From: Thermoleophilia bacterium UBA6103
Lineage (GTDB): Bacteria; Actinomycetota; Thermoleophilia; UBA2241
Reading direction: 5' to 3'
NCBI GenBank assembly: GCA_002423545.1
Contig: DIWP01000056.1
Span: 69,110-133,109, forward strand
DNA length: 64,000 nucleotides
Under the pieces are notes generated by a model. That model saw only the letters and a program-made list of their open reading frames with translations, was not told where the DNA came from and made no database searches. Position numbers and translations under genes: made by a program. Shown piece by piece: positions 12,762-29,047 of this stretch (position 1 is its first letter; every line of letters starts with the position of its first letter).

Positions 12762-13662
12762 AGTACAGACGGCCGTCGACCCGTCGCTTGTCCAGCAGTC
12801 CCTCGCCGTCGAGCTCCTCCACATATTTGAGGATCTCGTTGCGATGTGCGCCGAGACCCTCGACGATGTCCTCGAGTGAGCAGGGGCGGCGGGCCAGCAT
12901 GTCGAGCACCGCCGCCCGCGTGGCGCCGAACTCGGGCAGAGCGTGGACGCCGCGATAGTCGGCCACCACCTCGGCCGGTGGATCGAAGTACGTGGCGATC
13001 TCTTCCATGCGGGCGCGGTCGACGGCGACGGCGAACTCCTCGGCCGGCGGCCGCGTCACGGTGTTGAGCTGGACCCGGTCCGGCCGGATGTCGCGGGCGT
13101 GGTCGACGATGCGGCGTGCCTCGGCCGGGATGGCCGTATAGCCGCCGAGGATGAACGCTTCCAGCCAGATCGGCCCCTGGTACTCCCGCCGGAAGGCGAC
13201 CAGGCCGGCGAGCATCTGGGCGAAGGAGATGTACGGATGCGGCCGGTTGACCGCCTGGAACAGCGACTCGTCGCCGGCGTCCAGAGACGGCACCACAAGG
13301 TCGGCGGCGGCGATCTGTGCGCGCACCTCTGGGTCCCAGAGCAGCGAGCCGTTGGTGAGCACGGCGACCGGGACGTCGGTGAGGGCGTGGATGCGCTCGA
13401 TCAGCTCGTCGAGTCGCGAGTACAGGGTCGGCTCGCCGGAGCCGCTCAGCGTGATGTAGTCGGGTCGTGACGGGAGCGAGCCGCGCAGCTCCTCGATCAC
13501 GTCATCAAGCGGGACCCACTCGCGGCGCTCCACCGTCTTGTGGGTGGTGCGTCCGAGCTGGCAGTACACGCAATCGTAGGTACAGGTCTTGAAGGGGACG
13601 AGGTCGAGGCCCAGCGAGCGGCCGAGACGGCGCGAGGGGACCGGACCGAACACGTATGTCAT
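12736..13662 (-). CDS. radical SAM domain protein with C-terminal winged-helix-like region
   Basis: 308 aa with a CxxxCxxC cluster (KTCTYDCVYCQ) near the N-terminus, a Gly-rich SAM motif (LSGSGEPTL), and a TIM-barrel-like remainder. Start overlaps the upstream stop (ATGA). Confidence 0.7.
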   Translation of the reverse strand: MTYVFGPVPSRRLGRSLGLDLVPFKTCTYDCVYCQLGRTTHKTVERREWVPLDDVIEELRGSLPSRPDYITLSGSGEPTLYSRLDELIERIHALTDVPVAVLTNGSLLWDPEVRAQIAAADLVVPSLDAGDESLFQAVNRPHPYISFAQMLAGLVAFRREYQGPIWLEAFILGGYTAIPAEARRIVDHARDIRPDRVQLNTVTRPPAEEFAVAVDRARMEEIATYFDPPAEVVADYRGVHALPEFGATRAAVLDMLARRPCSLEDIVEGLGAHRNEILKYVEELDGEGLLDKRRVDGRLYFSAAAPAR

Positions 13663-14462
13663 CTCTCTTCGCCTCCCGGGTCATTGCTTGACTCGCCATC
13701 CGATCCGCCATCCGGCCCGTCTCCCGGCCCGTCGCACTCGTCGGAGCTATCGAAGGCCGGCTGCGGGTGCGACTGGGGCTGCGACTGGGGCTGCGGCTGC
13801 GGCTGCGACTGGGGCTCTGAACGCAGCTGCGACTGCGACGATCGCTGCGGTGGGGCCGGCGGGAGCGGCGGCCCCGGCCGCTGCATCTCCCGCACGAGGT
13901 CTGTCGGCAACGCCACGACCAGGCGGTCGGCGCCGAGTCCTCCGTACTCGCGGGCGTCGCCGCACCCGAAGGAGAAGGCGGGCAGACCGGCGCTGCCGGC
14001 GGCGGCGACACACGAGCAGACGGACATGAACGAGGACAGGCTCGTCTGCAGGGTACGGCCGTGCACGAGCTGCCAGCGCCGCAGCAGCTTCATGGCGGCG
14101 GCCGGCGTCAGGTAGGCGAGCAGGACGTCGGGGTCGTCGAGACGGCCGATGCGGATGAAGTGCAGCGGCCGTCGGAAGCAGGGCGTCTCCGCGACGATCC
14201 GGGTGGCGCGTTCGCGGGGCACGCCGGCGTGTTCGGCCATGCGCGCGACCAGGGTGTCATCGTCGCCGTCGCGGCCGAGGTTGCGGGGTGCGCCGACGCA
14301 GGTGAGGTCGGCGCAGTCGAGGACCACCTCTTCCCGGAACGACCGACCCACGGCGGCACAGAGCCGGACGAAGCCTCCCGGAGGCAGCGTGGCGGCCTCC
14401 TCGAAGCGCAGGGCCGTCCAGGGCTCGCCGGTGATGCCCTCCAGCAGCTCTATCTCGATCAC
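13659..14462 (-). CDS. hypothetical Cys-rich protein (possible DUF169-like) with Gln/Pro/Ser tandem-repeat C-terminus
   Basis: 267 aa with a GTG start overlapping the upstream stop. Several conserved-looking Cys (…CSCVAAAG…FGCGDAREYGG…). The C-terminal QSQPQPQPQSQPQS repeat is encoded by a DNA tandem repeat. Confidence 0.4.
   Translation of the reverse strand: MIEIELLEGITGEPWTALRFEEAATLPPGGFVRLCAAVGRSFREEVVLDCADLTCVGAPRNLGRDGDDDTLVARMAEHAGVPRERATRIVAETPCFRRPLHFIRIGRLDDPDVLLAYLTPAAAMKLLRRWQLVHGRTLQTSLSSFMSVCSCVAAAGSAGLPAFSFGCGDAREYGGLGADRLVVALPTDLVREMQRPGPPLPPAPPQRSSQSQLRSEPQSQPQPQPQSQPQSHPQPAFDSSDECDGPGDGPDGGSDGESSNDPGGEER
13690..13830. repeat. in-frame tandem repeat (CAGCCCCAGTCGCAGCCG-type hexamer/dodecamer units) encoding QSQPQP repeats
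   Basis: Visible as cagccccagtcgcagccgcagccgcagccccagtcgcagccccagtcgcac on the minus-strand coding frame. Confidence 0.6.
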
Positions 14463-15493
14463 GAGTCCGCTCTCGTCCTGTCTGCGTCATGCCGGCTGGG
14501 GGCGGCCGATCGGCCGTTGGCGACGGGGCCACCATCGGCGGCAGCGTGGCCGGCGGCGCCGGTGCAGCCGTCGGCACCGGCGTATCCGCCGGCGCCGGTG
14601 CAGCCGTCGGCACCGGCGTATCCGCCGGCGCCGGGGCGACCGTCGGCGCTCCGCAGCAGTGCCTGCGTGCCGCGGTCGAGCCCGGTGAGCGCGGCCACCA
14701 CCGGGCACTTGACGGTGAAGAGGAAGAAGATGTCGGCCGGCTCGTCGCTGAGCGACTCGTAGTTGCCCTGGCCCTTGGCGATGATGAGGTCGGCGGCGGC
14801 GAACCGGGCGCGGAAGTCCGGGGTGCAGTCCGACAGAAGGGTTCCCGGGGCGTCGGAGCCGTTGCTCACGACCTCACCGAACCGTCCCAGGCCGGCGACC
14901 TCGGCGTCGGCCAGCGTGGCGTCGTTGAGCACCGGCGCGCCGCGTACCGCGAACGTGACGCGTCCCGCCGGAAGCTGCTCGGCCAGCAAGGCGTCGAAGA
15001 CGATCTCGCCGGCATTGTCGGCGAGGTAGAGGATGCTGTCGGCGTCGGCCAGGGCGCGGCGGAACGCCTCGACATCACCGTGGAACGGCTGGTCGTGCGA
15101 TCCGTCGATGGCCTCTTCGATGCATTCCGTGCTGCGGGTGCCGGAGGCGCCGACGTCGATGGTGTTGCCGGCGATCGCCACGCGTATGGCGGCGGTCAAC
15201 GGATCGGGGGCGGTGCGCACGCGTTCGGCGAGCGACGGCAGCATGGCGAGCGCCGCCTCGTTGGAGTGTCGCTTGAGCTCTCCGAACGGGTCTTCGTCAC
15301 CGGCCAGCTCGCGGATGCGACGCTGCATGCGCTGCACCACCGGCAGCGGCGAGCCGCTGAGGTCGGCCGCGGCCGTGATCACCAGCGCCTCGCGCATGAT
15401 CCGTTCGCGCAGGTCGGCGTCCCCGTCGACGATCCGGGACGCCTCGAACGCCTGGCGGACAAGACAGGGCAAGCACTCCAACGTGGTCTTCAT
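14459..15493 (-). CDS. DUF89/ARMT1-family protein (damage-control phosphatase-like)
   Basis: The N-terminal MKTTLECLPCLVRQ (CxxC) and overall ~300 aa alpha/beta layout match the DUF89 family. The C-terminus carries a GAGGYAGADGCT repeat. First gene of a three-gene, minus-strand, translationally coupled operon. Confidence 0.55.
   Translation of the reverse strand: MKTTLECLPCLVRQAFEASRIVDGDADLRERIMREALVITAAADLSGSPLPVVQRMQRRIRELAGDEDPFGELKRHSNEAALAMLPSLAERVRTAPDPLTAAIRVAIAGNTIDVGASGTRSTECIEEAIDGSHDQPFHGDVEAFRRALADADSILYLADNAGEIVFDALLAEQLPAGRVTFAVRGAPVLNDATLADAEVAGLGRFGEVVSNGSDAPGTLLSDCTPDFRARFAAADLIIAKGQGNYESLSDEPADIFFLFTVKCPVVAALTGLDRGTQALLRSADGRPGAGGYAGADGCTGAGGYAGADGCTGAAGHAAADGGPVANGRSAAPSRHDADRTRADS
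14545..14650. repeat. ~36-nt tandem duplication inside the DUF89 gene 3' end
   Basis: cggcaccggcgtatccgccggcgccggtgcagccgt occurs twice consecutively and encodes GAGGYAGADGCTGAGGYAGADGCT. Confidence 0.6.
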
Positions 15494-15666: not shown

Positions 15667-17136
15667 TCAGGAGGTCTCGAACGCCGCTCCGGCGTCGAGC
15701 TCAAAGCCCGCGGCGAAGAGCTGTTCGCAGGCGGCCACGACGTCGCGGTCGTAGCGCGTACCGGCGCCGTTCCGTACCTCGGCGAGCGCGATCTGGGTGC
15801 CGAAGGCCGGCCGATACGGCCGGTGACTGGCCATTGCCTCCACCACGTCGGCCACCGCCAGGATACGGGCCTCCGGCAGGATGTCGTCGCCCGTCAGGCC
15901 GCGCGGATAGCCGGAACCGTCGCGCCGCTCGTGATGCTGGTAGACGACCTCGGCGACCGGTCCGTCGAACGCGATCGGCTTGAGGATCTCGTAGCCGAGC
16001 ACCGGATGTCGGGTGATGAGGTTGCGCTCGATCGTGGTCAGCGCGCCGGGCTTGCTGAGGATCTCCGCCGGCACGCCGATCTTGCCGACATCGTGCACCT
16101 CGCCGGCCAAACGGATCGTCTCCACGGCGCTCTCTTCGAGGCCCATCGCGGCGGCGATGGCGACGGCAAGGCCGGTGACCCGACGCTCGTGGCCGCTGGT
16201 GTATGGATCGCGCAACTCGACCACGGCGCCCATGGCATGCACGGTGTCGTGCAGGGCGGTGCGGAGGCGCTCACTGCTCTCGGCCAGCGCCTCCTCGGCG
16301 GCCTTGCGCTCGCTGATGTCCAGCATGACGCCGATGATGCCGGCCGGCCGGCCATCGGGTCCGATGAAGGTGGCCTTGTTGAAGACGACGTCCCGCAGAG
16401 CCCCGTCTGCGGCCTGCACCTTCCACTCGTATGACTGTCGGCCTGGCTTTCGGAGCAGCGCGCGGTCCATGTCGGCGTACCTGGCGGTGACGTTCGCGGG
16501 TCCGGTGGACTCCACCTGGGTACCGACGATCTCGTCGCGGGGCCGGCCGAGCAGCTCCTCGAAGGCGCGGTTGCAGCCGAGATAGACCCCCTCGGCGTCC
16601 TTGTAGAAGACGGGACTGGGGATGGTGTCGAGCAGGGTGGCGAGAAAGCCCGCCTGCCGGGCCAGCTCGGCCGACTTCTCTTGCAGCGCCTCCTCGGCCC
16701 GTCGCTGGGCGCGTTCGCGCTCGGCGTCGGCCAGCGTCCGCTCCACCGCCAGCGGCAGTCGGGCGAGGCGGTCCTTGAGGACACAGTCGGCGGCGCCTTC
16801 CCTGACGATGGCGACCGCCTTCTCCTCACCGATGGTGCCGGAGACGCAGATCAGCGGGATGTGGGGGGCACGTTCCTTGACGATCTCCAGCGCCGCCGGT
16901 GCATCGAAGCCGGGCAGCTTGTAGTCGGCCAGGACGATGTCGTACGGGGCGGTGGTCAGAAGGCGCTCGAACTCCGCGCGGCCTGCAGTCACATCCATCT
17001 CGATCGTCAGGCCGGCAGCGCGCAGCAGCTCGCCGATCAGCTCGGCGTCGTCGGGCTCGTCCTCCAGGAGGAGGATGCGCAGCCGGCGCAGTATGTGAGT
17101 GCCGGCTTTCGGGTCGCGGTCCTGGGGCTCGTTCAC
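15667..17136 (-). CDS. response regulator receiver-PAS-HD-GYP domain protein (putative c-di-GMP phosphodiesterase)
   Basis: The receiver domain (LLLEDEPDDAELI…DIVLADYKLPGFDA), a PAS domain, and an HD-GYP domain (…HERRVTGLAVAIA…EVHDVGKIG…HHERRDGSGYPRGL) are all recognisable. Confidence 0.75.
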   Translation of the reverse strand: MNEPQDRDPKAGTHILRRLRILLLEDEPDDAELIGELLRAAGLTIEMDVTAGRAEFERLLTTAPYDIVLADYKLPGFDAPAALEIVKERAPHIPLICVSGTIGEEKAVAIVREGAADCVLKDRLARLPLAVERTLADAERERAQRRAEEALQEKSAELARQAGFLATLLDTIPSPVFYKDAEGVYLGCNRAFEELLGRPRDEIVGTQVESTGPANVTARYADMDRALLRKPGRQSYEWKVQAADGALRDVVFNKATFIGPDGRPAGIIGVMLDISERKAAEEALAESSERLRTALHDTVHAMGAVVELRDPYTSGHERRVTGLAVAIAAAMGLEESAVETIRLAGEVHDVGKIGVPAEILSKPGALTTIERNLITRHPVLGYEILKPIAFDGPVAEVVYQHHERRDGSGYPRGLTGDDILPEARILAVADVVEAMASHRPYRPAFGTQIALAEVRNGAGTRYDRDVVAACEQLFAAGFELDAGAAFETS

Positions 17137-17189
17137 GTCACCTCGTTCACGTCACCCTCGTGGTCTTGTCGCCGGGATCGAACCCGTCG

Positions 17190-17651
17190 TCACTCAGCGC
17201 CCTTTGTACCCGTATCGTCAGGTGGCAGCTCGTTGATGAGTGCCCAGAACACGCCGAGCTGACGCACGGCATGCATGAACTCCTCGAACTGGACCGGCTT
17301 GACCACGTAGGCGTTGGCGCCGAGCTGGTAGCTGGTGACGAGGTCCTGCTCCTGTCGCGACGAGGTCAGGATGACCACCGGCAGCGTCCGCAGCTCCGCG
17401 TCGGCGCGGATCTCGCGCAGCAGCTCGAGTCCGTCCATGCGCGGCATCTTGATGTCAAGGAGCAGGAGCGCCGGCCGACGCCCGCCGCGGGCCGCCCACG
17501 GTCCCTGGCGGCGCAGATACTCGAGCGCCTCCACGCCGTCGCCGACCACGTCCACCCGATTGGCCAGGCCCTCCTTCCTGAGCGCCTCCAGCGTCAGCTC
17601 CACGTCGTCGATGCTGTCCTCCGCCAGGAGGATGGGTCGCAGATCGTCCAC
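17190..17651 (-). CDS. single-domain CheY-like response regulator
   Basis: 153 aa with PILLAEDSIDDVELT…LLLLDIKMPRMDGLELLREIR…VVILTSS, a canonical receiver domain. Confidence 0.75.
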   Translation of the reverse strand: MDDLRPILLAEDSIDDVELTLEALRKEGLANRVDVVGDGVEALEYLRRQGPWAARGGRRPALLLLDIKMPRMDGLELLREIRADAELRTLPVVILTSSRQEQDLVTSYQLGANAYVVKPVQFEEFMHAVRQLGVFWALINELPPDDTGTKGAE

Positions 17652-17653
17652 GG

Positions 17654-20600
17654 TCAGCGTCCTTTCGGGCCGGGAAGCGCGAAGTAGAAGGTGGCGCCCT
17701 GTTCCACGGCGCCCTCAGCCCAGGTGCGCCCACCCATCCTGGCGATCACCCGTCGGACGGTGGCCAGGCCGATGCCGGCGCCGGCGAACTGATCGGGCGG
17801 ATGCAGCCGCTGGAACACGCCGAAGAGCTTGCCGGCGTAGCGCTGGTCGAAGCCGATGCCGTCATCGCGCACCCAGAAGACCAGCTCGTCGCCGTCCTCG
17901 TCGTAGCCGACCTCGATGCGAGCCGCGTCGTGAGGAGCCGAGTACTTGACCGCGTTGTCGAGCAGATTGATCCAGACCAGGCGCACCATGGCTTCATCGC
18001 CGCGTACGTCGGGCAGAGCGGCGATGCGCCACTCGATGGGCCGCTCCGCGGCGTCGGGCAGCACGGCCTCCCAAGCCTCGGCGACGACCCGGTCCATGTC
18101 CACGGTCGTCATCCTGATCTCGCTGCGGCCGGTCCGCGAGAACTCGAGCAGCTCGTCGATGAGGCGGCCCATCCGCTCGACGGCGGCTGTGATGCGGTCG
18201 ATGTAGTGCTGCAGGTCGCCCTGCGGCTCGTCGCCGGCACGCTCCTGCAGTAGCGTGGCGAAGCCGGCGATGTGCCGCAGCGGTGCCCGCAGATCGTGCG
18301 AGACGGTGTAGGTGAAGGCCTCGAGCTCCGTGTTCACCGCCTCCAGCTCCGCCGTGCGGTCCCTGACCCGCTGCTCCAGCTCGGCGTTGAGACGTGCCAC
18401 GGCCGCTTCCGCCCGCTTGCGCTCGGTGATGTCCTGGACCGTGGCGAACACTCTGACCGGCGTACCGTCGCTGTCGTGCTCGATGACACCCACGGTCCGA
18501 ACATGCAGCACCTCGCCGTCCCGACGGACGATCCGGTACTCGTTCGGCGTCAGCTTTGACGCACCTGACGCGAGGCACTCCTCCAGCCAGCGCGTCACAC
18601 GGTCGAGGTCGTCCGGGTGGTGCATCTCGGCGTTGACGCGCGAGTAGTCGATCGTCTCCTCCGGTCCATAGCCGAGCAGAGCGTACAGGCCGTCCGACCA
18701 GTCGACGGCCCCGGTCTGCACGCTCCAGGTGAAGTCGCCCATCCGGGCGATGCGCTGCGCCTGTCGCAGCTTCTGCTCGCTCTCGCTCACGGCCTCCTCG
18801 GCGGTCACCCGCTCGGTGATGTCGAGGACCGCCGTCATGAAGTAGAGCGGCTCACCATGCTCGTCGCGGCGCAGCGTCGTCGACACGTCGGCCCAGAGGA
18901 TCGATCCGTCCTTGCGCAGATATCGCTTGCTGAAGCGGGCCGAGTCGCTCTCGCCATTGAACAGCGGCGCGATGGCGGTCTCGTTGGCGGCGACATCGCC
19001 GGGATGGGTGATGTCCTGCCAGCGACGGCGCTGCAGCTCGTCGGTGGTGTAGCCCAGCATGTCCCGGAATGCCTGGTTGGTCTCCATGCGCCCGTCCGGG
19101 TAGGTCAGAGACTTGCCGACGATCGAACGGTCGAAGACGTACCGGAACTTGTCCTCGCTCTCCTGCAGCGCCTCCTCGATGCGCTGGCGCTCGGTGATGT
19201 CCTCGAAGATGGTCGCGAAGGTCCCGGGAAGCGGGGAGACCACGCTGATCTTGAAGTGGCGCTGCAGCGGTGGCCAGTACGTCTCGAAGCTGCGCGCGGG
19301 AGCGCCGCCCGCCACCGCCGCGTACTCGGCGAGGAACGGCGGCTCAGGACTACCGTATGCTCCGCGTGACGACCGTCCGCGGACCTGCTCGGGCGACCAT
19401 CCCGTGTGCGTCTCGAACGCCGGGTTGACGTCGAGGACGCGGTAGTCGACCGGCCGCCCGTCCTCGTAGACGACCTCGTGCAGGGCCACGCCCTCCGTCA
19501 TGCTCTCGAACAGCGAGCGGAACCTGGCCTCGCTGGCGCGCAATGCCTCCTCGGCCTGCTTGCGCTCGGTGATGTCGTCGAAGACCACGCAGAACCGCTC
19601 GCTCGTGTCCCACGGCCGGTAGACGGTGCAGTCGTAGAGCTTGCCGGTGGGCTGATGGAACATCTCGAAGCGCCGTGTCTCGCCGGAGACGGCCACGGCG
19701 CCGTAGCTCTCGATCCAGCTTGCCTCGGTCTCCGGCCATACCTCGTGGACCGTCTTGCCGCGCACCTCGTCCAGGGTCACGCCGGTGATCTGCTCGTAGG
19801 CCTCGTTGATGTACTCGAAGCGGTAGCTCACGAAGCCGCCGTGCTCGTCGAACACGGACTGGAAGACGACGAACGCGTTGCTCATGCTGCGCAGGAGGTC
19901 GGCACGTTCCCGGAACAGCGTCAGCCGCTCCTCCTCGGCGTGCCGGCGCTCGGTGATGTCTTCGGTGAAGCCGAGATAACGGGACGCGGAGAGCCTGACG
20001 GCCGAGATCGACCACCAGCGTCTCTCTCCGGCCTTCGTGATGAACGGTCCCTCCCCGTAGGCCTGCCCTGTCTCCAGCAGCCGCGCGAAGTGGTCGCGGC
20101 CGTACTCCATCTCGTTCGGCGGCAACATGTCGGGGATGACCATGCCGAGCAGCTCGGCTTCCGGGTACCCGGTCACCTTGCACGCCCGCGGGTTGGCCTG
20201 CAGGCAACGACCGGTCTCGTCGCTGATGAAGACACCGTACGGGGCGTTCTCGAAGTAGCTGCGCCACAGCTGCTCGCTGTCCCTCAGGGCTTCCTCGGCC
20301 TGCTTGCGCTCCGTGACGTCTTCGTAGATGGCGACGATCTCGCCGCTCGGCAGGCGGTAGACGAAGTTGTCGCGCCAGCCCGTCAGGCGCTCGTCGGCAT
20401 ACTGCGAGACCGGAAGCTCTTCCGGCGTGCCGGTCCGCTGGACGCGGCGGAAGACGTCCAGCAGCCCGAACTCCTCCACGCCGGGGAAGACTTCCGTCAC
20501 GCGCCGCCCGATGACGTCCGCCCGGTCGAGCCTCTCCATCGCCTCGGCGGCGGCGTTGAACTCGCGGAAGATGAAGTCCTGCCCATCTTCCGTGGCCTCG

Positions 20601-22513
20601 TAGACGGCGACGCCGGCGTTGATCCGCTCGACCAGCTCCCGGTAGCGCTCGCCGGTCTCGCGGAGCTTCTGCTGGGTCCGGGTCCTTTCTACGATCTCGC
20701 CGATGAGGCGCGCCGCGGAATGCAGGCGGACCTTGGCGAGCTGGATCATGTACTCGGGTCGGCTCTCGTAGGCGGCGGCCTCCTGCCGAAGGCGTTCGAG
20801 CGGTACGCGATAGAGCCGCGCCAGCTCCTGTAGCTTGTCGGAGCCCGAAGGCGGGTCGCCGTAGCCGACGTTGATGGCCCCCACGACCTCGTCGCCGGCG
20901 CGGATCGGCACGGCGTAGAGGTGAAGGCCGCCGTGGCACTCCATGTCGACCGGCTCGCCGGTCTCGATGGCCAGCCGTGAGCAGTCGGTCCAGCAGGACT
21001 CGTGACAGAGCCAGTCGCCGCTTGCGAGGGCCTGCGCGTCGTCGTCGGTGGCACAGAGTCGCCGCGCTGCGTCGTCGAGGCAGCGGCACCAGCCCGACGA
21101 GAAGATGCCGAGAGCGTAGTCGCCGTTCTTCTCGTAGACGGCCGACGAGGTGCCGAGCAAGTCGAGGAAGTCGCCGGCGATGATGCGCAGCGTGTCGGCT
21201 CCCACGGCGTCGAGGATGGTCCGGTCGGCGTTGAGCTCGGTCAGGTCCCCGTAGGACTGCGTCGCCGAGGCGGTCGGTGCAGCTTGGCCGTTGGAACGGC
21301 TCGACAGCATCCACTCGATGCGGCGCAAGTCGGCCTCGGCCTGCCGGCGCTCGGTGATGTCGTCGAATGTGGCGTACACGCTGGTCACGTCGCCTGAGCC
21401 GTCGGCAAGCTCCGGTACGGCGTTGATCTCTATCCAGCGATAGCCTCCGGACACCGGGTTGAACACGCCCATGACGACGCCCAGGACCGGCTCGCCGGTG
21501 TGCAGCGCCACCATGCCCGGATGATCGTCACCGGGGAAGTCGCTGCCGTCTTCGTGGATCGCCCGCCAGCGCGGGTCGGTGGAGGTGCGGCCCTGCATCT
21601 GGTCGAGCGTGAGGCCGAGGATGCGCTGAGCGGCGGGGTTGGCGTCGGTGATGCGGCCGTCGGTGGCCTGATAGACCACGCCCTGCGTCATCGTCTTGAA
21701 CAACCTGCGGTAGCGGGCCTCGCTCGAGCGGGCGCGCTCCTCGCGCTCGTCCAGCAGCTGCTGCTGCCGGGCGAGTCCGTCGAGCAGGCCGTCGACCTCG
21801 CGGGCGACTCTGTCGGGACCCAGGAACTCCAACGGCGGCAGGTAATGGTCGTTGCGCAGCACGCGGCCGCCGTGGATCACGAGCGGGTGCGTCAGGATGA
21901 TGTCGCGCATGGTCTCGGCCGGGAAGCGAGCGCGATGGTACTGGCAGATCGCTAGGCAGTCGTGCGCGGGCAGAAAGTCGTTGAGCCTGGCCTCGTATTC
22001 GACGAGGCGGTCGGCACCGGAGGCGTCGCCGACCGCCCAGGTCATCTCGCCGGTCACCCGCAGGGCGGCGAAGCCGTCGGCTCGGGCGGCGGCCGTCGAC
22101 TCGGCGAGGTAGGCGATCATGCGCTCGGGGTCAAAGGCGCCGTCGCGGAGGTACGTCTCGCGTTTCGTGAGTACGGCCAGCGCTCCCGACGCCTGAGCCG
22201 CGGCCGTGTCGACGCCGTCGTCCCGCAGCGCGGCCAGCACCGTCGCGGCGGTCGTCTCGTCGATCACGCACACGCAGCGGTCGCCGCGCTCCAGGCCCAG
22301 GCGGGCGAACGGTACGACGGCGGCACGCTGCTCATCCGGAGTCTCGTAGATGAGGCAGAGGTGCGCGTGCGGAAGCAACGCCTCCAGTGCGGAGAGCAGG
22401 GTGCCACCGCCGCTCAGCGCCGACTCGTCGAGCCCCCGGTCCGTGGGCGTGTGTCCGGGCATGTCGCCCGCCTTCCCCCGAGATCCGTGCCACGCCTCGG
22501 AGGGAGTGTACAC
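17654..22513 (-). CDS. giant hybrid sensor histidine kinase: N-terminal MEDS-like sensory domain, about eight PAS/PAC domains, HisKA and HATPase_c
   Basis: 1,619 aa. The N-terminal ~200 aa (HLCLIYETPDEQ…GFAALRVTGEMTW…CLAICQYHRARF…THPLVIHG) matches my recollection of the MEDS domain. Many PAS repeats follow, separated by coiled coils. The C-terminus carries H-box VSHDLRAPLRHI and an ATPase (…DDGIGF…GAGIGLATV). The true start may be the internal Met (MPGHTPTD, near 22465). Confidence 0.75.
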   Translation of the reverse strand: MYTPSEAWHGSRGKAGDMPGHTPTDRGLDESALSGGGTLLSALEALLPHAHLCLIYETPDEQRAAVVPFARLGLERGDRCVCVIDETTAATVLAALRDDGVDTAAAQASGALAVLTKRETYLRDGAFDPERMIAYLAESTAAARADGFAALRVTGEMTWAVGDASGADRLVEYEARLNDFLPAHDCLAICQYHRARFPAETMRDIILTHPLVIHGGRVLRNDHYLPPLEFLGPDRVAREVDGLLDGLARQQQLLDEREERARSSEARYRRLFKTMTQGVVYQATDGRITDANPAAQRILGLTLDQMQGRTSTDPRWRAIHEDGSDFPGDDHPGMVALHTGEPVLGVVMGVFNPVSGGYRWIEINAVPELADGSGDVTSVYATFDDITERRQAEADLRRIEWMLSSRSNGQAAPTASATQSYGDLTELNADRTILDAVGADTLRIIAGDFLDLLGTSSAVYEKNGDYALGIFSSGWCRCLDDAARRLCATDDDAQALASGDWLCHESCWTDCSRLAIETGEPVDMECHGGLHLYAVPIRAGDEVVGAINVGYGDPPSGSDKLQELARLYRVPLERLRQEAAAYESRPEYMIQLAKVRLHSAARLIGEIVERTRTQQKLRETGERYRELVERINAGVAVYEATEDGQDFIFREFNAAAEAMERLDRADVIGRRVTEVFPGVEEFGLLDVFRRVQRTGTPEELPVSQYADERLTGWRDNFVYRLPSGEIVAIYEDVTERKQAEEALRDSEQLWRSYFENAPYGVFISDETGRCLQANPRACKVTGYPEAELLGMVIPDMLPPNEMEYGRDHFARLLETGQAYGEGPFITKAGERRWWSISAVRLSASRYLGFTEDITERRHAEEERLTLFRERADLLRSMSNAFVVFQSVFDEHGGFVSYRFEYINEAYEQITGVTLDEVRGKTVHEVWPETEASWIESYGAVAVSGETRRFEMFHQPTGKLYDCTVYRPWDTSERFCVVFDDITERKQAEEALRASEARFRSLFESMTEGVALHEVVYEDGRPVDYRVLDVNPAFETHTGWSPEQVRGRSSRGAYGSPEPPFLAEYAAVAGGAPARSFETYWPPLQRHFKISVVSPLPGTFATIFEDITERQRIEEALQESEDKFRYVFDRSIVGKSLTYPDGRMETNQAFRDMLGYTTDELQRRRWQDITHPGDVAANETAIAPLFNGESDSARFSKRYLRKDGSILWADVSTTLRRDEHGEPLYFMTAVLDITERVTAEEAVSESEQKLRQAQRIARMGDFTWSVQTGAVDWSDGLYALLGYGPEETIDYSRVNAEMHHPDDLDRVTRWLEECLASGASKLTPNEYRIVRRDGEVLHVRTVGVIEHDSDGTPVRVFATVQDITERKRAEAAVARLNAELEQRVRDRTAELEAVNTELEAFTYTVSHDLRAPLRHIAGFATLLQERAGDEPQGDLQHYIDRITAAVERMGRLIDELLEFSRTGRSEIRMTTVDMDRVVAEAWEAVLPDAAERPIEWRIAALPDVRGDEAMVRLVWINLLDNAVKYSAPHDAARIEVGYDEDGDELVFWVRDDGIGFDQRYAGKLFGVFQRLHPPDQFAGAGIGLATVRRVIARMGGRTWAEGAVEQGATFYFALPGPKGR

Positions 22514-22634
22514 CCGGCTTGCTCAAGGACCCCGATGCCATCGGCCGATAGGTTTGAGCAGCATTGACAGGCGGAGGGCACTCGTCTAGCCTCCGCTGCG
22601 CATCAGTCAGCCGGATGACTGAGAGGAGGGGAGC
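22513..22634. promoter_or_regulatory. divergent intergenic region between the sensor-kinase operon and the mttB operon, with a sigma70-like promoter and two hairpins
   Basis: TTGACA (cattgacagg) is followed after about 17 nt by TAGCCT. Two inverted repeats are present: GCGGAGG-N12-CCTCCGC and TCAGTCA-N6-TGACTGA. The RBS GAGAGGAGGGG sits before the mttB ATG. Confidence 0.35.
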
Positions 22635-24104
22635 ATGAAGCGCAACGCACAGGCCGGCGCCGTACGCAACGCCGGACTTTCATTCGGCGTCTTCAGCGAG
22701 GCGGACATCGACGACATCCACCTGGCCACGCTCGAGGTGCTCGAGCGCACCGGGGTGTTCGTGGAACAGGAGGAGGCTTTCGACATCTTCGCCGACGGCG
22801 GCTGCCGCGTGGACAGGGAGGGGCGGGTGGTCCGCATCCCGGCGCACGTGGTGGAAGACGCTATCCGCAGCACGCCGCCGAAGGTGGTCCTCGCCAGCCG
22901 CGATCCGAAGAACGATGTGGTGCTGGAGGCCGGGCGGGTGGCCTTCACCAACTTCAGCGAGGGCATCAAGGTCATCGACCCCTACACCGGCGAGCTGCGG
23001 GACTCGGTGAAGGACGATGTGGCCGCCATCGCGCGCCTCAACGACTACCTGTCGGAGATGGACACCTTCGAGCTGGCGGTCGGCGCCAAGGACGTGCCGG
23101 AGGAGACCGCCTCGCTGCACAACGTGGAAGCGGCGCTGCTCAACACCACCAAGTGCGTCGCCGGCCAGGCGCTCTCCGAGTGGGAGAGCGAGGCGATGAT
23201 CGACATGGCGGCGGCGCTGGTCGGCGGCCGCGACGCCCTGCGCGAACGGCCGATCATCTACCTGGGCGTCTGCCCGGTGAGCCCGCTGCAGCTGCCGCGC
23301 GAGGTCACCGAGGTCGTCATCTCCTCGGCCCGGGCCGGCATCATGGACCTGGTTCTCAGCATGGCCATGGCCGGCGGCTCGTCGCCGGTGACCCTGGCGG
23401 GGACCATGGTCACCCACAACGCCGAGGTGCTGGCCGGCATCACGCTGGCGCAGCTCACCGAGCGTGGCGCCCCCTGCGTCTACGGGTCATCTACCACCGG
23501 GCTCGACCTGCGCTTTGCGGCCGCCTGCGTCGGCTCACCGGAGCTGGCCCTGATCAGCGCCGCCGTCGCCCAGATGGCCCAGCGCTACAGGATCCCGAGC
23601 TTCGTGGCGGGGTTGTAGGCGGACAGCAAGACGTGCGACGTCCAGACCGGTCACGAGAAGACCCTCACCGGACTCCTGGCGGCGTTGGCAGGCGCCAACC
23701 TGATCTACGGAGCCGGCATGATCGAATCGGGCGTCACCTTCGACTGCGGGCAGTTCGTCATCGACAACGAGCTGGCGCGGATGATCAAGCACACGGTGGC
23801 CGGGATTCCCGTCAACGACGACACGCTGGCGGTCGAGGACATCCACGCCGTGGGCCCCTTCAAGGACTTCCTCTCCCTGGACAGCACGCTGCGGCGGATG
23901 CGCGAGCAGAGCCAGCCGAAGCTGCTCGACCGGCGCGTGCGGGAGGACTGGGAGGCCGACGACGGACGCCAGATCCACGCGGTGGCGCTGGAGCAGGCCA
24001 GAGAGATCATGGCCGAGCACGTGCCGCTGCCGGTACCGGACGAGAGCGTCGAGCTCATGCGGCGGATCGTGGCCGACGCCGACAGGCAGTACGCCGGCGC
24101 CTGA
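22635..24104 (+). CDS. mttB: MttB-family trimethylamine (methylamine):corrinoid methyltransferase with a single in-frame TAG codon (candidate pyrrolysine codon) at 23616-23618
   Basis: ORF 22635..23618 and ORF 23685..24104 are in the same frame. The only interruption is a TAG after …IPSFVAGL. Conserved MttB sequence continues immediately afterwards (ADSKTCDVQTGHEKTLTGLLAALAGANLIYGAGMIESG…). This is the position where genuine MttBs carry Pyl. If read through, the protein is ~489 aa, typical for MttB. Confidence 0.6.
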
Positions 24105-24276
24105 AGCCGATCGCCCGTACGCCGGCCGGGTCTTCCGCGGGGGCTGCCACCGGCTGCTGTGGCGGGTCAGGCTCGTGACTCGTGCGGAGCGACCTCGTTG
24201 CCGAAGTAGAGAGCGATATCGTGTCGATCCGGCTTGGCCGTCGCCGGCGGCCGGCCGATGGGAGGAGACGACTCAT

Positions 24277-24640
24277 GATCGAGATCATCGACGCTGCCCC
24301 CGACAACGTGCTTGCGTTCAAGGCGGTCGGGGAAGTCGAGGCAGCCGACTACGATGCGGTGCTCAAGCCGGCTCTGGACCGCATGCTGCAGAGTGGCGAG
24401 AAGGTGCGCTGCGTGTACGTGCTGGGGCCTGAGTTCAAGGGATACTCCGCGGGCGCGGCCTGGGAAGACGCCGAGCTGGGCATGGCGCACGTGACCAAGT
24501 GGCATCGCTGCGCTGTCGTCACCGACGCCGACTGGCTGCGCCATCTCGTGAAGGGCTTCGGCTGGCTGATGGTCGGCCACATGAAGCTGTTCGCCGTCGC
24601 CGAGCTGCAGCAGGCGATGGAGTGGGCCGCCGCCGACTGA
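24277..24640 (+). CDS. STAS/SpoIIAA-like domain protein
   Basis: MIEIIDAAPDNVLAFKAVGEVEAADYDAVLKPALDRMLQSGEKVRCVYVLGPEF… is a ~120 aa STAS-type fold. An RBS GGGAGGAG precedes the ATG. The ORF track begins earlier at 24182. Confidence 0.5.
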
Positions 24641-24781
24641 CCGCGGCCGGCGGCCGGCCCGGCCGCCCGATCCTTCATGTGGACGGCACCGAAGCGTAAG
24701 CTTGGACAGGATGGTCGGAAGTCGTCACCGCACACACCGGTGCGACGCCATCGGGAGGCCACAGCAGGAGCGGAGGGTGTC

Positions 24782-25957
24782 ATGAGCGCACAGGACGCGG
24801 CGGGCGGAGAAGGGAGTACGGGCGCTCGGACCCCTCTCGAGAAGGCGGCGGACTCCCTGACGCCGGTCTCCGAGAGGGCGGCGTCTGACTATGCGGCGCA
24901 GAAGGACCGGTTGCGCGAGATGGTCGATCGCGCCATGGCCGGCAGAGCGGACATAGAGACGCTCCTCGGCGGCGGCTCGCTGCGCGTCATGTACGACAAC
25001 GACCGCAACCACGTCGCGTTCATGGCCACCGTCTTTGAGTCCAACGACTTCGGCCTGCTCGCCCGGACGCTGCCGTGGGTGTATGGCGCGTATCGCTCCC
25101 ACGGCTACAGCGACGACTACTTCCCGGCGGTGCTGAACGCGTGGATCGGCGCTGTGCGTCGGTACGTGCCGGCCGCGCATGCGGCAGAGATCGTGCCTGT
25201 CTATGAGTGGATGCTCGACCATCAGCCGGAGCTCATCGCGGCGGCCGATGTCGCCGCCGGCGCCGCCGCCGGTCGCGAGCCGGCCGAACAGGTCCGTGCC
25301 TTCCTCGGCGCTCTGCTGGCCGGTCGCGCCGCGGACTGTCAGGAGATCGCCGACGAGCTGACGCAGCGACCTGAGGATCTGGCGGGCTTCTATCTCGACG
25401 TCGTGCAGCCGGCCATGGAAGAGGTCGGCCGTCTCTGGGAGCGCGACGAGATCTCGGTGGCCGAGGAGCATCTGGCCAGCGCCATCGTCTCGCGGACGAT
25501 GGCGGTCCTCTACACGCGCCTGGTCCATCGCGACGTCACCAGGGGGTCGGCGGTCGTGACGGCGGCGACCAATGAGTTCCACGACATCGGCAGCCGCATG
25601 GCCGCCGATCTGCTCGAGGTGGACGGTTGGGATGTCACGTTCCTGGGCGCCAACACGCCCGACGACGAGCTGCTCAAGCTGATGCGCAAGCTGCATCCCG
25701 ACGTGTTGGGAGTCTCGGTCGCCATGCCGTTCAACCTCGATCATGCCAGGCGGACGGTGGCCGCCCTGCACGAGGACCCCGACCTCGGTGGGACGCGGGT
25801 GCTGGTCGGCGGACGGGCGTTCGCGCTGCGACCGGAGTCGGCTGAGTGGGTCGGCGCCGACGCGCTGGCCGTCGATGCCCGCGACGGGGCACGGATAGCC
25901 GCCGCCTGGTGGGGCACCGACCCTCGCGACGCCGCCGGCCACCTCCCGGGGGACTGA
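24782..25957 (+). CDS. cobalamin (B12)-binding domain protein with an uncharacterised ~170 aa N-terminal domain (corrinoid protein / B12-dependent sensor)
   Basis: A B12-binding cap helix bundle is followed by a Rossmann-like B12-binding domain carrying the DxHxxG motif (NEFHDIGSRMAADLLEVDGWDV). The N-terminal domain (…RVMYDNDRNHVAFMATVFESNDFGLLARTLPWVYGAYRSHGY…) is unassigned. Start chosen at MSAQDAAG. Confidence 0.65.
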   Translation: MSAQDAAGGEGSTGARTPLEKAADSLTPVSERAASDYAAQKDRLREMVDRAMAGRADIETLLGGGSLRVMYDNDRNHVAFMATVFESNDFGLLARTLPWVYGAYRSHGYSDDYFPAVLNAWIGAVRRYVPAAHAAEIVPVYEWMLDHQPELIAAADVAAGAAAGREPAEQVRAFLGALLAGRAADCQEIADELTQRPEDLAGFYLDVVQPAMEEVGRLWERDEISVAEEHLASAIVSRTMAVLYTRLVHRDVTRGSAVVTAATNEFHDIGSRMAADLLEVDGWDVTFLGANTPDDELLKLMRKLHPDVLGVSVAMPFNLDHARRTVAALHEDPDLGGTRVLVGGRAFALRPESAEWVGADALAVDARDGARIAAAWWGTDPRDAAGHLPGD

Positions 25958-25958
25958 G

Positions 25959-26933
25959 ATGCCGGCCGTCGATCTGGTCCTGCGCGAGTACCCCGACCTG
26001 CTGGCGGCGTACCTCGACGCCGGGGGTCAGGTCTGCGTCATCGTGCTCGATTTCGAGGGAGCGGTCGAGGGCTGCAACGCGGCGTTCCGCCGTCTGCTGT
26101 CGCCGGACGAAGACCCGCGTGGCCGGACGTTCCGTGACTTCCTCGGCCGTGGTGACTGGGAGCGATTGACCGCCTCCGGCTCGCCCGGCGGTGCCGATTC
26201 CATGGCCGGCCGCTTCCCCTTCCGCCGGGCGGTCGTGACCGTGCGCTCCGACCGCTTCAGCGGCCGGCCGCTTTCGCTGGTCGTCTTCGAAGCCGGTGAG
26301 CGCCGCATCGTGTTCGGCGAGCGGATCGAGGCGAGCGAGAGCGAGATCGTGGAGCGCATGTCGGCTCTGACCAGCGAGATGGCCGACCTGAACCGCGAGC
26401 TCAGCAAGACGAACGCGTCGCTGGAGCGGGCCAACGCCACCATCACCCGACTGATGAACTCCGATCCGCTCACCGGAATCGCCAATCGGCGGTTCTTCAG
26501 CGAGATGCTGGAGCGGGCGGTGAGCTTTGCGCGCCGCCATCGGCAGTCGCTGGCCTTGACCATCTGCGACATCGACCGCTTCAAGCAGATCAACGACTGC
26601 TGTGGCCACGCGGCCGGCGACAAGGTGCTCATCGGCTTCGCGCGCCTGCTACAGGACAGCTGCCGGGCAGAGGACGTGGCGGCGCGCTTCGGCGGCGACG
26701 AATTCTGTGTGCTGCTGCCGGCCACGGACATCGAGAGCGGGCGCAGCTTCGTCGAGCGATTGCGCGAGCGCTGGCGTGGGATCGCGTTCGACGAGCTTCC
26801 GGAGCCGGTCACGGCCAGCTTCGGGCTGGCGGTGCTGGCCGACGGTGACGGTGTGGAAGATCTCCTGCAGCGAGCCGACACCGCCCTGTATCAGGCCAAG
26901 CGCGGCGGTCGCGATGCCGTGGACTGCGCCTGA
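25959..26933 (+). CDS. diguanylate cyclase (GGDEF) with N-terminal sensory domain
   Basis: GGDEF signature RFGGDEF plus the surrounding conserved GGDEF-domain sequence (…LTGIANRRFF…DIDRFKQINDCCGHAAGD…). ATG at 25959 is 1 nt after the TGA of the B12-binding gene, so the two are translationally coupled. Confidence 0.75.
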   Translation: MPAVDLVLREYPDLLAAYLDAGGQVCVIVLDFEGAVEGCNAAFRRLLSPDEDPRGRTFRDFLGRGDWERLTASGSPGGADSMAGRFPFRRAVVTVRSDRFSGRPLSLVVFEAGERRIVFGERIEASESEIVERMSALTSEMADLNRELSKTNASLERANATITRLMNSDPLTGIANRRFFSEMLERAVSFARRHRQSLALTICDIDRFKQINDCCGHAAGDKVLIGFARLLQDSCRAEDVAARFGGDEFCVLLPATDIESGRSFVERLRERWRGIAFDELPEPVTASFGLAVLADGDGVEDLLQRADTALYQAKRGGRDAVDCA

Positions 26934-27065
26934 GCGGCGGGACCGGCGCCATCGGGGGACAGGTCGAGGACCGCAGACACCGGGCTGGGGATGGTCGCTG
27001 TGGCCAGACGGCGCCTGTGGCCGGCCGCCGCGGCCCTCCGTGCAGCCTGTGGTCACGCGTGAATG

Positions 27066-27107
27066 ATGAAGGGGCGGACGGCCGAGTGGCCGCCCGCCCC
27101 TTCGTGT
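27066..27107. terminator. bidirectional intrinsic terminator-like hairpin between convergent genes
   Basis: GAAGGGGCGG-ACGGCCGAGTGGCCG-CCCGCCCCTTC is a GC-rich nested inverted repeat located between the GGDEF gene (end 26933) and the SBP gene (end 27212). Confidence 0.4.
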
Positions 27108-27211
27108 GACCACCGCCGGCTCGACCCAGGTCCGCGGGCAGGCGGGCCGGGCCGGCGGTGAGCATCACCTCAGTGAGTCACGTCCTGTCGCGCCTCCTTG
27201 ACGGCGCGCAC

Positions 27212-29047
27212 TCAGACCTCCTCCGCGGGTCCGCCACGGCGGCCGCGCATCACGAAGAACACGACCAGGCCGATGACCACGACGGCGGCGATGCCGATGC
27301 CGATCCAGAGGCCTACGTTGGTGCCTCCCCCGGTCGTCTCGGCGACCACCGGCTTGAGGTTGTAGTAGGCCCACGGGAAGGAGGCGCCGCACGCCACCGG
27401 CCCCTCGCCGAAGTTGCAGCGTTCCCAGCCGGTCCACTTGTCCGTGCGGTAGGCCTGCAGCTTGAGCGGATGCGTGGTGACGATGACCGGGCAGTCCTCG
27501 TACATCACCTGCTGCATCTGGTGGATGAGGTCTGCCCGCTTGTCCGGGTCCATCTCCTGGTTCTGGGCGGTGTTGAGCTCGTCGTACCTCTCGTTCGACC
27601 AGCCCTGCTCGTTCCAGCCCTCGATCTGGGCGGTGGTCCAGCAGTCGAGCGTCTGGCCGGGGTCGGCGTAGCCGTCCCAGTTCCAGTAGTAGGCGTCGAA
27701 GTCCGGGGCGTAGGTGTCGCCCTCGTAGTTCCAGATCTTGTCGAAGAACACGCCCTCGTCCTGGACCGTGAGGACCACGTCGATGCCGCACTCCTCCCAC
27801 CAGCCGGCGATCAGCTTGGTGGCGCGCTGGCTCTCCGGGTTGTCCGCCAGGGCCCAGAGGCGGAGCTTGACCGGCTCGCCCTGCTTGTCCTCGCGGACGC
27901 CGTCGCCGTCGCTGTCGGCGTAGCCGGCGTCGTCGAGCATCTGGTTCGCGAGCTCGAGGTCGAAGCCGCGCGCCTCGCTCTCGGCCGGTGCCCAGGCGAA
28001 GTCGGGATCGCGCCAGGTGCTGGGCGGCAGCATCGTGTGTCCGACCCAGGCGTGACCGCTATAGGCCACGTCGACGAGCTTCTGACGGTCGACGGCGTGC
28101 TCCAGCGCGATGCGGAGTTCTTTGTCGAGCAGCGCCGGGTTGCCGAGCGACGCCTTGTCGTCGTAGCAGTTGAAACCGACGTAGTCCCAGTTGTACCAGG
28201 GGTACTCGATGGCCTCTATGCTCTCGGTGTCCTGCAGCTCCTTGAACTGCGCCTGCGGGAACATGTAGGCCACGTCGATGGCGCCGCTCTTGAGGTCCTG
28301 CACCAGTGTGTCGCCGTTCTTGTAGACCACGAACAGGACCTCGTCGACAGCCGGCGCACCGAGGTAGAAGTCCTTATAGGCTGCCAGCCGCAGGTAGCGG
28401 TTCTTCTTCCACTCGACCACCTGGAACGGGCCGCTGCCGATGACCGGCGGATCGTTGGCGAAGGTCGAACCCGCTTCCTCGCCCGACATCTTGCCCCAGA
28501 TGTGCTCCGGCAGGACGGGTATCCACAGGCCCAGAAGGTTGGACTTGGGGTGGCTGCAGTAGACCTTGTAGGTGAGGTCGTCGATCTGCTCGGCCTTCTC
28601 GACGCCCTCCAGGAAGCCGATGTAGGACGAGATCTCGTTCTCGATGATGAAGTTGTAGGTGAAGACCGCGTCCTTGGCCGTGATCGGCGTGCCGTCGTGC
28701 CAGGTCATGCCCTCGTTGATGGTGAACGTCCATTCGAGCTCGTCGGCGGACAGCTCCCAGCTCTTGTTGATGCCCTTGTCGTCCGGCTTGAGGTCTTCGA
28801 TGGCGCGTCCTGTGAGGAGCAGGTACTCGTTGACGTAGACCTCGTAGACGTTGTTGCTCCAGCCGATGAGCGGGTTCATGTTGTCGACCTCGCCCATCCA
28901 GCCGATCTTGAGCACCTTCTTGCCGGCGGAACCGGTCTCCTCGTCCTGGGCGGTCGCCAGCCCGCCGAAGGCGAAGACCGCCGCGATCGCGATCAGCGCG
29001 CAAGCCGCGATCACCGACCAGCTGCGTCGCATGCGTGGATTCCTCAT
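27212..29047 (-). CDS. ABC transporter substrate-binding protein, family 5 (peptide/nickel/opine type), with C-terminal membrane anchor
   Basis: 611 aa with a signal peptide and the SBP_bac_5 architecture. Unusual C-terminal TM helix (VGLWIGIGIAAVVVIGLVVFFV) plus a basic tail. No adjacent permease or ATPase genes. Confidence 0.75.
   Translation of the reverse strand: MRNPRMRRSWSVIAACALIAIAAVFAFGGLATAQDEETGSAGKKVLKIGWMGEVDNMNPLIGWSNNVYEVYVNEYLLLTGRAIEDLKPDDKGINKSWELSADELEWTFTINEGMTWHDGTPITAKDAVFTYNFIIENEISSYIGFLEGVEKAEQIDDLTYKVYCSHPKSNLLGLWIPVLPEHIWGKMSGEEAGSTFANDPPVIGSGPFQVVEWKKNRYLRLAAYKDFYLGAPAVDEVLFVVYKNGDTLVQDLKSGAIDVAYMFPQAQFKELQDTESIEAIEYPWYNWDYVGFNCYDDKASLGNPALLDKELRIALEHAVDRQKLVDVAYSGHAWVGHTMLPPSTWRDPDFAWAPAESEARGFDLELANQMLDDAGYADSDGDGVREDKQGEPVKLRLWALADNPESQRATKLIAGWWEECGIDVVLTVQDEGVFFDKIWNYEGDTYAPDFDAYYWNWDGYADPGQTLDCWTTAQIEGWNEQGWSNERYDELNTAQNQEMDPDKRADLIHQMQQVMYEDCPVIVTTHPLKLQAYRTDKWTGWERCNFGEGPVACGASFPWAYYNLKPVVAETTGGGTNVGLWIGIGIAAVVVIGLVVFFVMRGRRGGPAEEV

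Follow-up and report, generated by a model that had tools for sequence, protein, structure and literature searches.

We analyzed a 64,000-nucleotide (64-kb) stretch of contig DIWP01000056.1 (GenBank assembly GCA_002423545.1) from the Thermoleophilia bacterium UBA6103, referred to here as the window, in which two adjacent genes on the forward strand encode a 391-amino-acid cobalamin-binding protein (the sensor) and a 324-amino-acid PAS/coiled-coil/GGDEF protein (the partner). Our preferred reading, to which we assign a probability of about 55%, is that these genes specify a split cobalamin sensor of the photocobilin type, which acts on its partner by protein contact. Both open reading frames (ORFs) have the bias in GC content at third codon positions (GC3) expected of genuine genes at the 70% GC of the window. 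Their features, and those of the neighboring genes discussed below, are collected in Table 1.

The first-pass annotation of this DNA described a B12-binding protein of about 390 amino acids with an unassigned N-terminal part, and we found zero Pfam matches in residues 1-172 of the sensor, in agreement with that description. A full-length AlphaFold2 (AF2) model has a predicted local distance difference test score (pLDDT) of 93 and a predicted template modeling score (pTM) of 0.88, the latter of which indicates a fixed assembly of the N-terminal and B12 domains in the model. Full-length homologues fall into about 50 clusters with 37-66% identity to the sensor. Conservation was read from an alignment of 47 of these, and motifs were counted in up to 150 full-length family members, with fewer scored at some positions.

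The partner gene begins almost immediately after the sensor gene, as the first-pass annotation had noted. The junction reads GGGGGACTGAgATG, with TGA at 25955-25957, a single spacer base, and ATG at 25959. The annotation's statement that the cyclase has an N-terminal sensory region of its own also stands, given the PAS-like domain there, which has a weak Pfam PAS_4 match at residues 24-70. Among 67 members of this PAS module, 23 match PAS_8, 15 match PAS_9, and seven match PAS_4. A profile of these 67 members searched against the PDB gave the PpsR PAS domain 4HH2 as its best match (E = 5e-8, spanning only about 52 residues), followed by the PAS domains of ThkA and WalK. The coiled-coil stalk that joins this module to the cyclase domain contains a conserved MSxLxNExxxLxRELSKKNxELExAN block. 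In the cyclase domain, residues 236-249 read RAEDVAARFGGDEF, in which the GGDEF and RxxD motifs are both intact.

An Rfam search of positions 22400-27300 found neither a cobalamin nor a c-di-GMP (cyclic di-GMP) riboswitch, and the 141-nucleotide spacer upstream of the sensor gene folds no better than shuffled sequences (z = 0.29). A scan for sigma-70 promoters and terminators between the genes, which is ill suited to a 70% GC actinobacterium, gave nothing useful.

Table 1. Features of the sensor-partner locus and of its surroundings in the window
Feature	Position	Strand	Evidence
Sensor gene, 391-amino-acid globin/cobalamin-binding protein	24782-25957	+	ORF, translation, GC3 0.85
N-terminal globin-fold domain, residues ~17-163, photoglobin-like with altered pocket (predicted)	24830-25270	+	AF2, Foldseek, hhalign
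Pocket motif N73-D-R-N-H77, N73 at the position of the bilin-binding Asp	24998-25012	+	Alignment, hhalign/BLASTP register
Four-helix-bundle cap, residues 173-243	25298-25510	+	Pfam B12-binding_2, E 1.5e-16
W219-x9-E229-H230 (G216 ahead), CarH-type adenosyl-pocket signature	25436-25471	+	Invariant in 47 homologues
Rossmann-type cobalamin-binding domain, residues 256-364	25547-25873	+	Pfam B12-binding, E 6.8e-20
E265-F-H267-D-I-G270, lower-axial His motif (E/DxHxxG)	25574-25591	+	E265, H267, and G270 invariant
Gene junction TGAgATG (stop, 1 nucleotide, start), Shine-Dalgarno-like GGGGGA just upstream	25955-25961	+	Sequence
Partner gene, 324-amino-acid PAS/coiled-coil/GGDEF protein	25959-26933	+	ORF, Pfam, GC3 0.87
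PAS-like N-terminal domain, residues ~14-122	25998-26324	+	Weak Pfam PAS_4 match, profile
Coiled-coil stalk, residues ~123-166	26325-26456	+	Conserved block, helix by inspection
GGDEF diguanylate cyclase domain, residues 167-319	26457-26915	+	Pfam, E 3.6e-44
RAED I-site	26664-26675	+	
Intact GGDEF motif	26691-26705	+	
SpoIIAA-like (STAS-fold) gene between mttB and the sensor gene	24182-24640	+	Pfam PF11964, E 2.6e-23
mttB	22635-24104	+	E 4e-115 to Methanosarcina MttB
In-frame TAG of mttB	23616-23618	+	Alignment with Methanosarcina MttB
Pyrrolysine insertion sequence (PYLIS), directly after the TAG	23616-23715	+	Rfam PYLIS_3, 77.7 bits (gathering threshold 38)
Divergent signaling block: 1619-amino-acid histidine kinase with MEDS, PocR, and at least six PAS domains; stand-alone receiver; receiver-PAS-HD-GYP protein	15667-22513	-	

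Conservation of the gene pair

We scanned one genome per GTDB species and found the sensor protein in at least 538 of these genomes, mostly from anaerobic bacteria. The best 80 loci were retained, 76 of which had enough downstream DNA for the next gene to be judged. For 70 of these, the gene that follows on the same strand begins between -11 and +7 nucleotides from the sensor stop codon, mostly with a 4-nucleotide overlap, and its product contains a homologue of residues 1-166 of the partner in the window. Two further loci have a GGDEF gene directly upstream of the sensor gene (in one case with the PAS module), and in one more the PAS module lies 1.3 kb downstream. A relative from a Joint Genome Institute (JGI) metagenome that is 96% identical (L001) has the same locus and the same TGAgATG-type junction. 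Five distant homologues with 37-41% identity, including one from the complete genome of Proteinivorax, each have an overlapping GGDEF gene of about 310 codons directly downstream, and a sixth is followed by a gene for a 210-amino-acid PAS protein instead.

The output domain attached to the PAS/coiled-coil module is not constant. Among 63 complete partner genes, 36 encode a GGDEF protein, 21 a short protein of about 210 amino acids ending in a cysteine motif that has no Pfam match, five a HisKA/HATPase kinase (one of them a hybrid kinase), and one a SpoIIE phosphatase. Among the partner cyclases, GG[DE]EF is kept in 33 of 36 and RxxD in 35 of 36.

A constant sensor, a constant receiver module, and exchanged outputs are the pattern expected of a dedicated sensor-transducer pair. 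The pairing of the two genes is not accidental, and the link between the sensor and c-di-GMP synthesis suggested by the first-pass annotation is thus borne out as far as the pairing itself is concerned. The opposing explanation is that the two genes are merely neighbors and that the cyclase is governed by its own PAS domain alone. Tight spacing is frequent in compact operons, and PAS-GGDEF proteins often sense ligands unaided. The adjacency is nevertheless kept over at least ten phyla while the surrounding genes differ, and the PAS/coiled-coil module persists while its output domain is swapped, so that we consider coincidental neighborhood the least probable of all the explanations discussed here.

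The tail of the short partners has the Cys/His motif IPICxYCKKIRDxxxxWxxxExYxxxHSxAxFSHGICPxC (for example L022:6077-6730, L036:6080-6757, and L064:6077-6715, with 18 others) and is possibly a zinc-binding output. In the lineage of P0034 and P0037 (L005:7101-8036 and L008:6101-7036), the active-site motif of the partner is degenerate, reading GDGGEF or GGGAKF, and the gene pair is flanked by genes for PAS kinase, receiver-HDOD, and receiver-HD-GYP proteins. Given this degeneracy and these signaling neighbors, the partner in that lineage may serve as a scaffold or as a receptor, and not as a cyclase. In a metagenome-assembled genome of the Brocadiaceae (L056:321-1979), the sensor reading frame extends upstream into a region with 45% identity over 55 amino acids to the MEDS region of the histidine kinase in the window, a possible MEDS-sensor fusion or else an adjacent gene. 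We looked for a fusion of sensor and partner among the family members and found none; the sole long member, P0163 (529 amino acids), has a junk-like N-terminal extension.

The cobalamin-binding domain

The residues G216, W219, E229, H230, E265, H267, G270, S312, and G344 are invariant in the 47 aligned homologues. The GxxW-x9-EH cap motif and the ExHxxG lower-ligand motif, which define CarH-like light-responsive domains (PMC10979010, PMC11796333), are kept widely in the family, GxxWx9EH in 147 of 150 members and [DE]xHxxG in 146 of 150. S312 (in SxL) and the glycine pair G343-G344 of the B12-binding fold are also conserved in the family alignment, and the GxxxP element of the published signature (PMC11796333) is present in the sensor as G289ANTP293.

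A PDB sequence search with this domain gave the photocobilin 8J2Y as the best match (E = 8e-24), followed by the photocobilins 8J2W and 8J2X (E of about 3e-20), the B12 domain of CtMerR (8JBS, E = 9e-17), CarH (E of about 1e-11), and MttC (E = 9e-7). In Foldseek comparisons, the AF2 model superimposed on the cobalamin-binding domains of CtMerR and TtCarH with TM scores (TMt) of 0.79-0.83 and on AbPcob (8J2Y) with a root-mean-square deviation (rmsd) of 2.6 Å, whereas MttC gave only 0.54-0.55 and an rmsd of about 9 Å. The B12 domain of the sensor is of the CarH/photocobilin type and is not an MttC methyl carrier. With the photoreceptor signature present and with photocobilins and CarH as its closest relatives in both searches, the first-pass annotation's proposal of a cobalamin sensor in the style of CarH or AerR is supported.

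The same annotation had measured the protein against MttC and MtbC, a comparison that our results do not support. A methyl-carrier identity would make the sensor an elongated MttC that serves the neighboring pyrrolysine-containing MttB, with the cyclase gene a mere neighbor. An mttB gene with a genuine pyrrolysine codon and a PYLIS element does lie two genes upstream on the same strand, the window has no second B12-binding ORF, and JGI labels homologues of the sensor "methanogenic corrinoid protein MtbC1". The corrinoid-protein models of NCBIfam nonetheless fit poorly: TIGR02370 (pyl_corrinoid) gives the sensor 50.1 bits where its cut-off is 215.3, the MtgC model 56 where it is 370, and the MtbC model 46 where it is 350. 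MttC is a weak PDB match that superimposes badly, the cap bears the photoreceptor W-x9-EH motif, and an mttB gene occurs within ±5 kb of the sensor gene in none of 80 other species loci, as against 70 of 76 for the PAS partner. On these four lines of evidence we rejected MttC as the identity of the protein, and as a rival account of the locus we regard it as very improbable.

The N-terminal globin domain

Modeled alone with AF2, the N-terminal domain is all-helical with a pLDDT of 93.8. A Foldseek search of this model against the PDB returned globins exclusively, with weak E-values of 0.01-0.1. The top superpositions were with allophycocyanin subunits and the biliverdin-binding smURFP (TM 0.60-0.64, rmsd 2.6-3.0 Å, about 123 columns). 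As modeled, the domain has a globin fold. A hidden Markov model (HMM) of the domain found 635 cluster representatives among 1.84 billion proteins, nearly all of them proteins of about 370 amino acids with the domain at the N terminus, or fragments of such proteins.

Profile comparison indicates that the domain is probably a divergent photoglobin. With hhalign, it aligned to the N-terminal globins (photoglobins) of related B12 proteins with probabilities of 84% and 68% (E = 8e-6 and 5e-5), over 104-110 columns in a single consistent register. These N-terminal photoglobins in turn aligned to the C-terminal domain of SasPcob-like proteins with a probability of 97% (E of about 1e-11), and a direct comparison of our domain with the SasPcob-type domain gave a probability of 15% (E = 1.7e-3). 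P0074 matches 8J2W from end to end (E = 2e-99), which identifies the C-terminal domain of the SasPcob-like proteins as the crystallized bilin-binding photoglobin domain. A BLASTP alignment with P0055 also continued from the B12 domain back into the N-terminal domain. The first-pass annotation had called this domain novel, a description that the predicted fold and its profile-level tie to photoglobins no longer support.

The pocket motif of the domain has the family consensus NHRNH. H77 is invariant and N73 is kept in at least 90% of the 47 homologues, while position 74, which is His in at least 90% of the family, is Asp in the protein from the window. N73, preceded by M-Y-D in the sensor, aligns with photoglobin D49 and with Asp270 of SasPcob, and W99 aligns with Trp296 of SasPcob. 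In photoglobins, the bilin-binding Asp is part of a CxQD or CxRD motif (PMC10151467). At its position, 119 of 124 family members scored have Asn and one has Asp.

We also considered whether the domain could be a heme globin and rejected this reading. Helix 4 lacks a conserved proximal His, and H105, although frequent among family members, is not invariant and is Arg in the protein from the window.

Comparison with known systems

Schneider et al. (2021, PMC8717448) described photoglobins that occur before or after two B12 domains and have GGDEF, STAS, HD-GYP, and kinase genes as operon neighbors. Zhang et al. (2024, PMC10979010) grouped the photocobilins by an N- or C-terminal position of the B12 domain, showed that illumination raises the cyclase activity of the fusion protein AbDPcob more than 10-fold, and showed that stand-alone photocobilins modulate a cyclase in trans. 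The first-pass annotation saw in this locus the likeliest candidate for a new sensory module, a claim that these two papers leave unsupported in that form, the first having described globin-plus-B12 sensors with GGDEF neighbors and the second a light-activated fusion.

AbDPcob from an Acidimicrobiaceae bacterium (8J2Y; PMC10979010) is the nearest known system. Like the pair in the window, it combines a CarH-type B12 domain, a phycobiliprotein-like globin, and a GGDEF domain; its cobalamin photochemistry controls c-di-GMP synthesis, and its B12 domain is the best PDB match of the sensor. It differs in being one fusion protein in which the globin follows the B12 domain, whereas in the window the globin precedes the B12 domain and the cyclase is encoded by its own gene, together with a PAS/coiled-coil module. 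At the main bilin-binding position, AbPcob has His and the sensor has Asn. SasPcob (8J2W and 8J2X) is, like the sensor, a stand-alone globin-plus-B12 protein, and it modulates a cyclase in trans in vitro. The likeness of its globin and of other photoglobins to that of the sensor is confined to the profile level, with Asp270 of the CxQD motif replaced by Asn73 of MxxN. A conserved PAS-bearing partner is evident for the sensor, whereas the role of stand-alone photocobilins was left open by the authors.

The MerR-family repressors CarH and LitR share the W-x9-EH and E/DxHxxG motifs and the arrangement of helical bundle and Rossmann domain with the sensor. They differ in having a DNA-binding domain; the sensor has none, and its output would be through the partner enzyme. 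MttC, MtbC, and MtgC have the same two Pfam domains as the sensor, and an mttB gene is nearby in the window, but the sensor has an additional globin, other cap motifs, and a conserved signaling neighbor rather than a methyltransferase.

In AppA and AerR, a domain of the cobalamin-binding type binds a PAS protein, PpsR or CrtJ. The pairs AerR-CrtJ and AppA(SCHIC)-PpsR thus provide a precedent for a B12-type protein that acts on a PAS partner, an analogy of function for which we claim no common family membership. AppA is a weak PDB match of the sensor B12 domain (E = 0.005). The partners of AerR and AppA are transcription factors, whereas partners of the type in the window are enzymes or kinases.

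Proposed mechanism

We propose that the sensor combines a photoglobin-like globin with a CarH-type cobalamin-binding domain, in which adenosylcobalamin is most probably bound base-off/His-on through H267, with W219, E229, and H230 lining the adenosyl pocket. The effector is predicted from its motifs to be an active, product-inhibited diguanylate cyclase, and its PAS domain and coiled-coil stalk would be the part where the sensor docks and through which its signal is transduced. If the upper-ligand state of the cobalamin changed, the cap and the oligomeric state of the sensor would change with it. The likeliest trigger would be cleavage of the Co-C bond by green light, as in CarH and the photocobilins, whose biochemistry suggests that loss of the adenosyl group on illumination would remodel the EH helix and the oligomeric state. 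The change would pass through the PAS contact to the cyclase dimer and shift c-di-GMP synthesis, in either direction. Since the residue after the Trp is Glu in the sensor, where TtCarH has His132 of its bis-His light state, a photocobilin-like hydroxo/aquo light state is more likely than the CarH state (PMC10979010). The cofactor, the light signal, and the contact between sensor and PAS domain are what we infer in this scheme, the contact from the gene pattern together with the trans-activation of AbDGC by free photocobilins.

Several observations weigh against this scheme. The published GxxH element reads N264-E-F-H267 in the sensor, and the family census at that position gives N in 114 of 146 and G in only 13 of 146. 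Both the bilin-binding Asp and the Cys of photoglobins and phycobiliproteins (PMC10151467) are replaced in M-x-x-N of the sensor family, with Met at the Cys position, which makes a second, bilin chromophore doubtful. The link between the N-terminal globin and the photoglobins is moderate, since it consists of hhalign probabilities of 68-84%, and the HMM of the domain gave only chance matches against PDB sequences, leaving 8J2W unmatched even though it was included. Most hosts are strict anaerobes from sediments, digesters, or subsurface environments, where light is no obvious cue; Smithella, Syntrophus, Syntrophomonadaceae, Desulfuromonadales, and Halanaerobiaceae are examples. With the Asn for Asp and NxxH for GxxH substitutions and with these hosts, light as the signal is not assured. 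Finally, the evidence for a sensor-PAS contact and for translational coupling of the two genes in this locus is the gene arrangement itself, and both would be consequences that such an arrangement suggests.

The same observations give rise to a competing explanation, in which the wiring is as proposed above and the signal is not light but the supply of cobamides, the kind of upper ligand, the redox state of the cobalt, or a ligand in the remodeled globin pocket. Such a signal would suit the dark, anoxic habitats of hosts that are overwhelmingly anaerobes. The NHRNH motif in place of the bilin-binding CxQD/Asp, together with the near-invariance of N73, H77, and H148, suggests another ligand or a contact surface, and NxxH in place of GxxH points in the same direction. 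In AbDPcob, the binding of adenosylcobalamin alone lowers cyclase activity relative to the apo-protein (PMC10979010). The adenosyl pocket is, however, retained in nearly the whole family, all proteins with this signature assayed to date are light-responsive (PMC11796333), adenosylcobalamin is inherently photolabile, and certain hosts inhabit illuminated mats and hot springs. We consider a non-photic signal the less likely of the two, and at the same time a serious competitor of the light-driven scheme.

Surroundings of the gene pair in the window

The threonine synthase encoded in the window is closest to proteins of metagenome-assembled genomes from Actinomycetota and Thermoleophilia. The mttB gene upstream of the sensor gene has an in-frame TAG at precisely the position that pyrrolysine occupies in Methanosarcina MttB (VAGL*ADSK versus VAGSXSDAK), and this TAG is conserved in L001. 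The alignment and the PYLIS match mark the UAG as a genuine pyrrolysine codon. We saw neither pylT nor pyl genes, and no MttC-like protein, in the 64-kb window. An mttB gene lies near the sensor gene only in the window, L001, and L003.

This neighborhood allows a further explanation, in which the gene pair was recruited beside an orphan pyrrolysine MttB, and MttB methylates the cobalamin of the sensor, which then reports trimethylamine to the cyclase. The upper-ligand state, methyl as opposed to adenosyl or none, would signal trimethylamine availability, and the pair would be a methyltransferase-driven corrinoid chemosensor and not a photoreceptor. We keep this explanation in view because mttB is co-oriented with the pair two genes upstream, because no MttC or other B12-binding ORF is available to it in the window, and because a MEDS/PocR kinase lies alongside, and we give it a very slim chance.

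The SpoIIAA-like gene between mttB and the sensor gene is shared only with L001 and L003, both nearly identical to the window. It is lineage-specific, and its membership in the cassette is uncertain. STAS proteins are recurrent neighbors of actinobacterial photoglobin genes (PMC8717448), and STAS neighbors are also reported in PMC10979010. In the divergent signaling block, the receiver-PAS-HD-GYP protein is a c-di-GMP phosphodiesterase, and fusions of MEDS with light-type B12 domains have been mentioned (PMC11796333). Because none of them accompanies the cassette in other species, we treated mttB, the SpoIIAA-like gene, and the divergent block as lineage-specific surroundings.

Elsewhere in the window, a second MTTB-family gene (220-1689, forward strand; 490 amino acids) has no internal stop codon, marking it as a non-pyrrolysine paralogue, and no corrinoid-protein gene adjoins it. 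A gene of baeRF family 3 (bacterial archaeo-eukaryotic release factor; 7389-8660, forward strand) is a curious find near a UAG-recoded gene. A trio of genes for a radical-SAM protein, a DUF169 protein, and an ARMT1-like phosphatase (12736-15493, reverse strand) lies downstream of the signaling block and is syntenic in L001. A second GGDEF ORF (60968-62548, reverse strand) is unrelated to the cassette and lacks the PAS module of the partner.

Implications for the photocobilin family

Systems of this kind are known: they were predicted in 2021, and the demonstration came with a fusion protein in 2024. What appear unstudied are the divergent globin subfamily with its Asn pocket and NxxH motif, its consistent pairing with a PAS/coiled-coil module, and its anaerobe-rich distribution. 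The family accessions from Thermodesulfobacterium, Halarsenatibacter, and Pelovirga are absent from the searched supplements of the two photocobilin papers, and a Halanaerobium sequence in the alignment of the photoglobin paper (PMC8717448) may be a member of the family. Signature-based mining that requires GxxH may have missed these sensors.

When photocobilins were characterized in 2024, the authors expressly did not settle what the stand-alone forms do. The locus in the window, together with several hundred related ones, suggests a natural answer: a globin/B12 protein that stands alone is paired with a dedicated PAS/coiled-coil partner whose outputs are interchangeable, being c-di-GMP synthesis, a histidine kinase, a PP2C phosphatase, or a Cys-motif tail. 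Regulation in trans by a B12 sensor is therefore directly testable with two small soluble proteins. Because the bilin-binding Asp has been lost, GxxH is replaced by NxxH, and the hosts are mostly anaerobes, the family could also reveal what the globin does without a bilin, or that a CarH-type B12 domain can serve a purpose other than light sensing.

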